Assembly: GCF_013167455.1 (NCBI RefSeq)
Contig: NZ_CP038328.1
Length of the DNA: 64,000 nt
Origin: Escherichia coli O157:H7
Lineage (GTDB): Bacteria > Pseudomonadota > Gammaproteobacteria > Enterobacterales > Enterobacteriaceae
Strand: one strand, 5' to 3'
Part shown: positions 3,001-6,000 of the stretch, piece by piece
Numbering within the stretch: the first letter of the stretch is position 1
Layout of the letters: the number at the start of each line of letters is the position of its first letter
Made by a program: the position numbers

Positions 3001-6000
3001 CATTCCTGATATAGACTATTAATTCATTTATCTGCGGCAGATTTTATTTTCTGGATATATTATGAGTGAACAAATCAAACAGGATATCGATCTGATTGAG
3101 ATTTTATTTTATCTGAAGAAAAAGATTCTTGTTATCCTTTTTATTATAGCTATCTGTATGGCAATGGTGCTTTTATTTCTGTATATCAATAAAGATAATA
3201 TAAAAGTGAGTTACAGCCTAAAAATAAATCAGACAACACCCGGCATACTTGTTAACTGTGATAGCAATAATAACTTTGCCTGTCAGACAACAATGACTGA
3301 AGATGTTATTCAGCGAATTACTACATTTTTTCACACCAGCCCAGATGTCAAGAACAGAGAAATAAAGCTGGAATGGTCAGGAGATAAGAGAGATTTACCA
3401 ACTGCTGAAGCGGAAATATCTCGCGTGCAGGCGTCTATTATCAAATGGTATGCGTCAGAATACCATAATGGCAGGTAAGTTCTCGATGAGATACAAACGC
3501 CTTCAGCAATTAACAGTGAGCTTTATACAAAAATGATATACCTGACCAGGAACTGGTCATTGTATCCGAACGGTGATGGCTGTGTAACTATAAGCTCACC
3601 AGAAATAAAAAATAAATACCCTGCTGCCATTTGCCTGGCTCTGGGATTTTTTCTAAGCATTGTAATTTCTGTAATGTTTTGTCTTGTCAAAAAAATGGTA
3701 GATGAATACCAACAAAACTCTGGGCAGTAATAAACAGCATTCTGATAGAGAGTGCCTGTATAAAGCTGAAGTGACAATGACCGGGAAGGGAACCCGTTTT
3801 CAGGAATGGATGCCTGTCTTTTTCACTGTAAATATCCTGGCATTAGTAATGCCAGGATATTTACAGAAGAGGAGCATAACCATGACGGAACGGGGTTAAG
3901 TCAGGTTGTCCTTAACGCTATTTTCAACCTCGTATGCCTTCTTCAGGTTTATGTCCAGACTTCATACCTCTCTCAGCAATCCTCAATAATCAGATACACC
4001 GCTTTCACCGGACCATGAACCCCGACGACTTTGATAAGCTCAATGTCCGCCGTTGAGCTGGGACCACTGATGATGTTAATACATGACGGCATGCGTTCAC
4101 CGGCCTGCGCTTTCTGATGCAATCTTTCTGCGAGTTGCGCTACACGCGGCAGGATAGTGCTTTTACGCAGGATAAAAAGAGATGATTCCGGGAGCAGGCT
4201 CAATGAACGCCCACGCTCGGCGGCGGAAAAAAGAACCACGCCTCCCGATTCGGTTAAACCATATTCAGCATACACGACACCCACTTTAGCCTGCTCTGCC
4301 TGCGAGATATTCTTGGCACCTTTCGCCGGATCCCAAACAACGGCATTGCATTCCTGCTGCAAACGTTCGCTAATCCCTAATTCCTCCAGCCTCGTGTCAC
4401 CGCTAATCACGACCGACTGATCTCCCAGCTCTTTACACAGACGTATTGCAGCTTCTGCCGCCTTCGCCTCGCTGGTCAGCTCACAGCGCGTCAACATAAC
4501 ATCGCTGGCAAACTGAATAAACGCGTCACAGCGCTGCTGTTGGTTAAGTTGGGTAAGCCGCTCGTTAGCATAGTTATTAAGCGGCGCATCTTCTGCTTGC
4601 GGTTCAAGTCGCAGCGGGCGACCCAGTGCCTGAGCAACGTTATTCAAAAATTCGCCTCGATTATCCATTCTTTTTCTCCTGCGCCTGATGTTTCTTAAAC
4701 CAACTACGGAAACTCTCTCCGTCAGCTTCAGGAAGATCGCGTGCTTCCATCCAGTCGCTAATCGCGCCAAATTTGAGTGGTGTTTTGCCGCCATTGATAA
4801 ACCAGCTTGCCGCATGAGCACCGGCCATCATCCCGACTTTCCACAATCCTGGATGACTATTGGCATAAGCGAACATTTTTATCGCCCGTTGCTCTGCTTT
4901 TGCGGTGATCCCTTTTTCAGCCATCACCCGACGATGACGCAAAATCAGTTTTGACAGCGGAATACGCACCGGACACACGTTGTCACAAGCTGTGCATAAA
5001 GAGCAGGCGTAGGGTAAATCTTTAAAATCTTTATAGCCGCCAAGTAGCGGAGAAATCACCGCACCAATTGGCCCTGGATAAATAGAGCCATATCCATGAC
5101 CGCCAATATGGCGATATGCCGGACAAGTATTCATACAAGCCCCGCAGCGAATACAGCGCAGCACATCCCGAAATTCAGAGGCCAGCACCTCAGAACGCCC
5201 GTTATCGACAATAACCAGATGAAACTCTTCAGGACCATCAACGTGCCCCGCTTCGCGAGGTCCTGTCAGCCAGGTGTTGTATCCCGTCAAACGTGCACCA
5301 ACGGCACTGCGCGCCAGCATGGTGATCAATACATCTACCTCGGCAAACGTGGGGGCAATACGCTCCATTCCCATCACTGCAATATGCGTTTTAGGCAGCG
5401 TGGTACACATTCGCGCATTACCTTCATTGGTCACCAGGCATACCGAACCTGTCTCTGCCACCGCGAAATTACAGCCCGTAATACCTATTTCAGCACTGAG
5501 GAAATCTTCGCGGATTTTTTGCCGGATGAATAAGGTCATCGCTTCAGGCGTTTCCGGCCCCTCATAGCCCAGACGTTCGTGTAGCACTCGACGGATCTGA
5601 TGGCGATCTTTATGAATTGCCGGGACCACAACATGAGAGGGCGGATCTTGATCCAGCTGGAGAATATATTCACCCAAATCGGTTTCAATCACCTGAATGC
5701 CAGCATCCTGCAACACATGATTGACACCAATCTCTTCGGTCACCATCGATTTAGATTTCACCACCTTCCGGGCATTTTTGCGTTGGGCAACCTGTAAAAT
5801 GTAGCGGGTAGCGTCTTCTTTGGTTTTTGCAAAATAGACGTGACCGCCGTTTTGCGTCACTTTTTCTGAGAGCTGGTACAGATAAGCGTCGAGATTACTC
5901 AGAACATGATCACGTATCTGGGCGGCCCGATCGCGCCACTCCTCCCAGAGCCCCAATTCATCGACCATTTTTTGCCGATTTGCCCCAATACGCTGCTGCG

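Follow-up and report, generated by a model that had tools for sequence, protein, structure and literature searches.

In Escherichia coli K-12 MG1655, ykgH (b0310; WP_001209100.1) is an intact gene of 669 nucleotides (nt) that encodes a protein of 222 amino acids (aa) and lies convergent with ykgG-ykgF-ykgE. In the literature, YkgH is described as a predicted inner-membrane protein (bioRxiv 10.1101/2024.11.06.622226), and the Keio ykgH mutant appears in a list from a Congo-red/curli screen (PMC5745457). The best structural matches of YkgH, and the only full-length ones, are the polysaccharide co-polymerases (PCPs), namely WzzB, FepE and WzzE (PCP-1), Wzc (PCP-2a) and KpsE (PCP-3). Here we describe the ykgH copy carried by a 64,000-nt stretch of E. 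coli O157:H7 DNA (RefSeq assembly GCF_013167455.1, contig NZ_CP038328.1; hereafter the window), in which the same frame contains an internal TAA. This copy is almost certainly a true nonsense pseudogene that arose by one C>T change in the common ancestor of O55:H7 and O157:H7 and was inherited clonally. The features concerned are as follows.

3062-3730, + strand: ykgH pseudogene, full ancestral frame of 669 nt (equivalent to K-12 b0310, 222 aa), from alignment with K-12; the Prokaryotic Genome Annotation Pipeline (PGAP) calls 'protein YkgH, pseudo, internal stop' on the identical interval.
3476-3478, + strand: premature stop TAA (Gln139, CAA>TAA; C>T at 3476), from translation and allele comparison.
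3062-3478, + strand: residual 138-codon open reading frame (ORF), Sakai ECs_0348, from the ORF list, hydropathy and model secondary structure.
3533-3730, + strand: in-frame downstream remnant (Met157-Gln222; a 65-aa ORF), from the ORF list, hydropathy, homologue alignment and the model.
3289, + strand: O157-lineage-specific substitution, the only other ykgH difference from O55:H7 CB9615 (nt 228), from comparison with CB9615.

The window interval aligns collinearly with K-12 ykgH over 669/669 nt, and codon-by-codon comparison gives 96.6% nucleotide identity with 23 substitutions and no indels, which identifies the match as homology and not chance. Translation of 3062-3730 yields 223 codons, of which codon 139 is an internal TAA and the last, at 3728-3730, is the terminal TAA. 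The original prediction had named the gene ykgH and described two ORFs in one frame, 3062-3478 (138 aa) and 3533-3730 (65 aa), and both statements hold, the placement relative to ykgG, ykgF and ykgE being as in K-12. Its count of 222 sense codons needs correction: the frame has 221 besides its two stops, one internal and one terminal, and 222 residues is what intact K-12 YkgH measures. It had also considered that the short ORF might be the natural gene, with K-12 YkgH ending at codon 138; instead, K-12 YkgH runs to 222 aa and has CAA at codon 139. The two copies share their locus, their orientation convergent with ykgG-ykgF-ykgE, the order and spacing of neighbours and the 669-nt frame, and they differ at 8 further amino acids, all within residues 1-117, and in their upstream neighbour, which is the hyx island in the window and betA in K-12. 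Gene order is thus kept but the 222-codon ORF is interrupted at codon 139, and we therefore regard the window gene as a pseudogene copy of the K-12 orthologue.

At codon 139 itself, the K-12 CAA (Gln) and the window TAA are separated by a single C>T transition. CAA is also found at this codon in the intact alleles of 2014C-4587, RIVM_C037791 and MEI2A-0323, which together with K-12 make four intact alleles from different backgrounds, and because K-12 and these three unrelated strains agree, the TAA is, on the alleles compared, the derived state. Distant YkgH homologues likewise continue beyond the alignment column equivalent to codon 139; one fragment (P0069) merely ends near there.

The stop is far from unique to this record. 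A 73-mer centred on the TAA has exact matches in 307 complete E. coli records, with other alleles in ~4,450, and the independently sequenced O157:H7 carriers include Sakai, resequenced EDL933, TW14359, EC4115, Xuzhou21 and many isolates from cattle and humans; the allele is also present in the pig isolate NJS001 and in PV15-279. The window was compared collinearly via NJS001, Sakai and CB9615, and whole-window collinearity with PV15-279 was rejected, an IS1203 being inserted in the hyxB gene of that strain. The window ykgH is identical to the other O157:H7 copies, and the one base that separates the window from Sakai and NJS001 over several kilobases lies outside the gene. It is thus vanishingly improbable that the TAA stems from faulty sequencing or assembly of this single record, because the identical allele is replicated across complete genomes from many laboratories and platforms, resequenced EDL933 and Sakai among them, and recurs in O55:H7; a substitution is, moreover, unlike the usual run of such errors, which affect homopolymers or take the form of indels. 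The proposal that the interruption reflects genuine pseudogenisation and not sequencing error is in this respect well founded.

The distribution also places the event in time. O55:H7 CB9615, the model of the immediate ancestor of O157:H7, carries the same ykgH TAA and differs from the window allele at one other base (nt 228, window position 3289), and since both share the stop, the TAA is, by this comparison, older than O157:H7 and predates its emergence. ykgH is labelled 'internal stop' or 'pseudogene' in four independent records, those of PV15-279, NJS001, CB9615 and Sakai (ECs_0348), and for CB9615 O55:H7 a published supplement places ykgH in the pseudogene list and classes the nt 228 change as non-coding and as falling in a pseudogene (Zhou et al. 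2010, supplement). The pseudogene is thus already known in this lineage, both annotated and published, and the window holds another copy of the O157:H7/O55:H7 allele, with the same lesion and nothing substantively different.

ykgH is widespread in the species. A 901-nt query for the locus, whose underlying feature is ykgH, matches 5,174/5,426 complete E. coli genomes, and the ratio of nonsynonymous to synonymous polymorphism (pN/pS) between alleles is ~0.15, which is why ykgH is, by this measure, a real gene under purifying selection that is near-core in E. coli. The gene has been disrupted independently in other E. coli lineages by in-frame deletions, frameshifts, junctions and, in H29, an IS1 insertion. 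Among the alleles seen, the nearest intact one to the window ykgH is that of MEI2A-0323, with 6 differences, and it also adjoins the hyxB island; the reconstructed intact progenitor, that is, the window allele with T3476C, had no 100% match in the genome collection.

To what kind of protein the lost codons belonged can be approached through the YkgH family. Hydropathy indicates two membrane segments, at ~aa 20-45 and ~184-214, and the secondary structure of the model agrees, with helices at 22-42 and 188-220. A word-indexed homologue search with YkgH returned Escherichia sequences only, including disrupted forms, and an exhaustive HMMER search recovered a small family of distant homologues of 211-229 aa that are 21-29% identical, full-length and collinear through the second transmembrane (TM) helix, TM2. 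In the family alignment, the N terminus keeps an (E/D)IDLxE...K motif with TM1, and the further conserved elements are a Cys pair, Trp129 (invariant), an (S/T)ELY motif, a KY motif (Tyr186) and TM2. The Pfam Wzz profile (PF02706) gave sub-threshold N-terminal matches in 5/12 family members (17.5-20 bits, against a cut-off of 25.5) that cover only the first ~40 profile positions. The GNVR profile (PF13807) scored above its gathering score of 27.7 in two distant members, P0060 (33.2 bits) and P0085 (31.4 bits), in the region equivalent to YkgH residues ~133-210. In an NCBIfam search, YkgH returned just an MPA1 match far below threshold, and a PDB profile search with the family matched only WzzB (6rbg, E = 0.0045) and FepE.

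An AlphaFold2 model of YkgH built from the family alignment reached a predicted local distance difference test score (pLDDT) of 82 and a predicted template modelling score (pTM) of 0.64, and shows TM1 leading into an alpha/beta base, followed by a long helix (109-143), then a return helix (153-167), a pair of strands and finally TM2. With this model as the Foldseek query, the top ~40 PDB matches were all co-polymerases (Wzc, WzzB, WzzE and KpsE), E-values starting at 2.5e-4 and TM-scores lying between 0.46 and 0.50. YkgH is accordingly modelled with both the alpha/beta base and helical hairpin of a PCP protomer and two TM helices flanking the periplasmic domain. Like the PCPs, with their N-terminal 'IDLxxL...K' sequence, it would begin with such a motif followed by TM1, continue in the periplasm as an alpha/beta base bearing a helical hairpin, and end in a putative C-terminal GNVR-type module with TM2. 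Unlike them, it is shorter by ~100 or more residues, has a long helix of ~35 residues where PCPs have a ~100-angstrom hairpin, and has neither a kinase domain nor consistent polymerase or transporter neighbours.

Several of these observations weigh against reading YkgH as a co-polymerase. The similarity is remote; E. coli YkgH itself falls below the Pfam cut-offs, and GNVR (PF13807) was not detected in it by the Pfam search; the TM-scores are 0.46-0.50; and the hairpin is much shorter than that of Wzz. Nor do the gene neighbourhoods of YkgH homologues contain a consistent Wzy/Wzx or transporter partner: one has a Wzy_C/PglL-family gene two genes away, and the others have autotransporter or fimbrial genes or PapB regulators; P0060, P0064 and P0077 lie on short contigs whose surroundings gave no information. 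Inspection of the E. coli ykgH neighbourhood likewise found no Wzy/Wzx, ATP-binding cassette (ABC) transporter or outer-membrane polysaccharide export (OPX) partner gene. Because of the sub-cut-off Pfam scores, the short hairpin and the inconsistent neighbours, we do not file YkgH as a proven member of the PCP family, and infer from the model that it is a compact co-polymerase-like protein. As to the settings in which the distant homologues occur, one lies downstream of a 1,608-aa autotransporter (L012, 1213-8136), and another stands beside a fimbrial operon, the Wzy_C/PglL-family gene and a DsbA-like gene (L013, 5062-8663).

Against this architecture, the consequence of the stop can be read directly. 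The 138-codon ORF keeps the N-terminal 'IDLxE' motif, TM1 (~aa 22-42, ~3125-3187), some of the alpha/beta base and the greater part of the long helix, near the tip of which the TAA is predicted to map, and the remnant at 3533-3730 holds the return helix, two beta-strands, the KY motif and TM2 (~aa 188-210, ~3623-3691). Termination at codon 139 deletes 84 residues, and with them go the return helix, the final pair of strands in the base, the (S/T)ELY and KY motifs, TM2 and the GNVR-equivalent region. We propose that a single C>T transition would have converted Gln139 from CAA to TAA in an ancestor shared by the O55:H7 and O157:H7 clones, and that the stop would then have been passed on by clonal inheritance. 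In the intact protein, TM1 and TM2 would flank a periplasmic region made up of an alpha/beta base and a helical hairpin, resembling a shortened polysaccharide co-polymerase (Wzz/Wzc/KpsE) fold, and the 138-aa fragment would probably be unable to adopt this two-anchor fold and hence be non-functional. Judged from the alignment and the model, it is very unlikely that the fragment folds or functions like intact YkgH.

Two ways in which the gene might nevertheless have stayed useful have to be set against this interpretation. The 138-aa ORF could be a functional, shortened, single-anchor periplasmic protein with a new or partial function; its start codon and TM1 remain, as does most of its periplasmic domain, Sakai first listed it as a hypothetical protein, and it has acquired no new disabling mutation since the O55/O157 split. 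This last point counts against pseudogenisation, as the allele shows no further decay and only one SNP (single-nucleotide polymorphism) since that split; such a lack of decay fits a recent origin and would not, by itself, prove relaxed constraint. Little decay is, however, what a young lesion would be expected to show, given 14 SNPs in 15.6 kb relative to CB9615, and the C-terminal module and TM2 that the fragment has lost are retained in every full-length homologue, even at 21% identity, with the two lost strands placed in the base sheet of the model. The unrelated ykgH disruptions in other E. coli lineages, too, argue for a dispensable gene and not for a selected short form, and we consider a functional fragment quite improbable. 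The stop might alternatively be bypassed, by readthrough or recoding or by re-initiation at Met157 to give two complementing polypeptides, as the downstream frame is open to the ancestral stop and has an ATG at 3533. No Shine-Dalgarno-like sequence lies within 25 nt before that ATG, though, and residues 139-156 would be missing anyway. Both release factors recognise TAA, and no stop codon terminates more efficiently in E. coli; for selenocysteine to be inserted, a TGA and a selenocysteine insertion sequence (SECIS) element are required. In ykgH, the codon is TAA, is confined to one clone complex and is replaced by CAA in the intact alleles examined, which does not match the pattern of programmed recoding, so a bypass is close to impossible. 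The nonsense pseudogene described above remains by far the best account of the interval.

The 3′ end of the locus raises a separate question, which concerns the following feature.

3826-3866, strand unassigned: perfect 19-bp palindromic hairpin with a 3-nt loop in the ykgH-ykgG intergenic region, or ykgH 3′ untranslated region (UTR), from the sequence; fold z = -6.2.

This hairpin is context and not part of the ykgH lesion, and the K-12 stem has a mismatch. In K-12, two studies using RIL-seq, in which interacting RNAs are ligated and sequenced, report the ykgH 3′ UTR as a putative Hfq-associated small RNA (sRNA) with a target motif (PMC5145812, PMC8175672). One could therefore suppose that the locus is kept mainly as the source of an Hfq-binding 3′ UTR sRNA, its coding function being irrelevant, a scenario compatible with ykgH being a pseudogene. 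Polymorphism in ykgH is indeed uneven. Across six alleles, 24/27 variable sites fall in nt 1-417 and 3/27 in nt 418-669 (Fisher p = 0.004), and against K-12 alone the corresponding counts are 22 and 1; constraint at the RNA level would account for this low diversity of the 3′ third, and the intact 3′ UTR hairpin would suit the idea. The uneven diversity is explained equally well, however, by recombination associated with the variable upstream hyx island or by constraint on TM2, and the intergenic region between ykgH and ykgG differs from K-12 at 6/242 positions. Rfam has no family at the ykgH 3′ region, and our scan of 2850-4100 gave merely sub-threshold microRNA-family matches on the palindrome, which we took as chance. 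A promoter and terminator scan found no informative ykgH terminator, and its promoter-like matches were noise from AT-richness. Northern blots, as reported in one of the two studies, did not detect the RNA from the ykgH 3′ UTR (PMC8175672). We regard retention for an sRNA as unlikely.

The ykgH stop has company within the window. The original prediction had counted three in-frame nonsense codons, adding to ykgH a TGA in eaeH and a TAA in a hotspot ATPase; all three are present, and a fourth, a TAG in hyxR, had been missed. The eaeH gene, also called fdeC, occupies 12956-17209 (- strand), with the TGA at codon 618 (15356-15358), where CB9615 has GGA; PGAP annotates fdeC as 'internal stop' in O157:H7, and it is intact in CB9615. 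The TAA in the ATPase-like ORF (56418-57698, - strand) lies at 57039-57041. Two lesions that the original prediction had missed, this TAG and a deletion in hyxB immediately upstream of ykgH, emerged from comparison with CB9615.

34-36, + strand: hyxR (LuxR-family regulator, starting before the window), Ser55 TCG in CB9615 changed to TAG.
2701/2702, + strand: hyxB autotransporter, 1,037-bp internal deletion relative to CB9615.

The deletion splits hyxB into ORFs 1587-2714 and 2632-2880 (+ strand), which are the Sakai 'autotransporter' ORFs ECs_0350 and ECs_0349. Across window positions 1-15663, the differences from CB9615 amount to 14 SNPs and the hyxB deletion only, and 2/14 SNPs are nonsense (hyxR and fdeC). 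The fdeC TGA, the hyxR TAG and the hyxB deletion are later than the ykgH TAA, since O55:H7 CB9615 lacks them, so that by this comparison the local lesions are genuine and differ in age, ykgH having been hit first and hyxR, hyxB and fdeC later, in O157:H7. The same 1-15663 segment is a local cluster of O157-lineage lesions in adhesin-related genes (hyxR, fdeC and hyxB), and in some O157:H7 strains (PV15-279) hyxB additionally contains an IS1203. The ATPase-like ORF belongs to a different setting: it has 427 codons, lies in a P4-like satellite element and adjoins ABC-three-component genes. The homopolymer context of its TAA is T5/A7, the two halves are separate hypothetical proteins according to PGAP, and the CB9615 counterpart is broken differently and is listed as pseudogene G2583_0355.

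A broader and more speculative reading would join these strands. YkgH and its distant relatives may form an unrecognised class of miniature co-polymerase-like proteins near adhesin loci, and the loss of ykgH might have been the first step in a possibly selected shutdown of a surface module, followed by hyxR, hyxB and fdeC, with the retained 3′ end possibly kept for an Hfq-dependent sRNA. The adhesin neighbours behind this idea are the hyxB autotransporter in the window, the autotransporter in L012 and the fimbriae in L013; we hold it to be rather unlikely as a whole.

For E. coli O157:H7, the in-frame stop in ykgH is genuine biology and not a data artefact, and ykgH should be entered as a pseudogene in an annotation of the window, in line with RefSeq. 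For the protein, the analysis offers a testable structural hypothesis, in which an uncharacterised near-core E. coli protein would have a compact Wzz/KpsE-like fold. Many genes have been lost in a clone-specific manner in the lineage leading from O55:H7 to O157:H7, and the loss of ykgH is one such case, genuine but ordinary. What is mildly new is the order of four or five local inactivating events relative to O55:H7, and with it the timing is now clear, with ykgH inactivated ahead of the emergence of O157:H7 and the lesions in fdeC, hyxR and hyxB following after.
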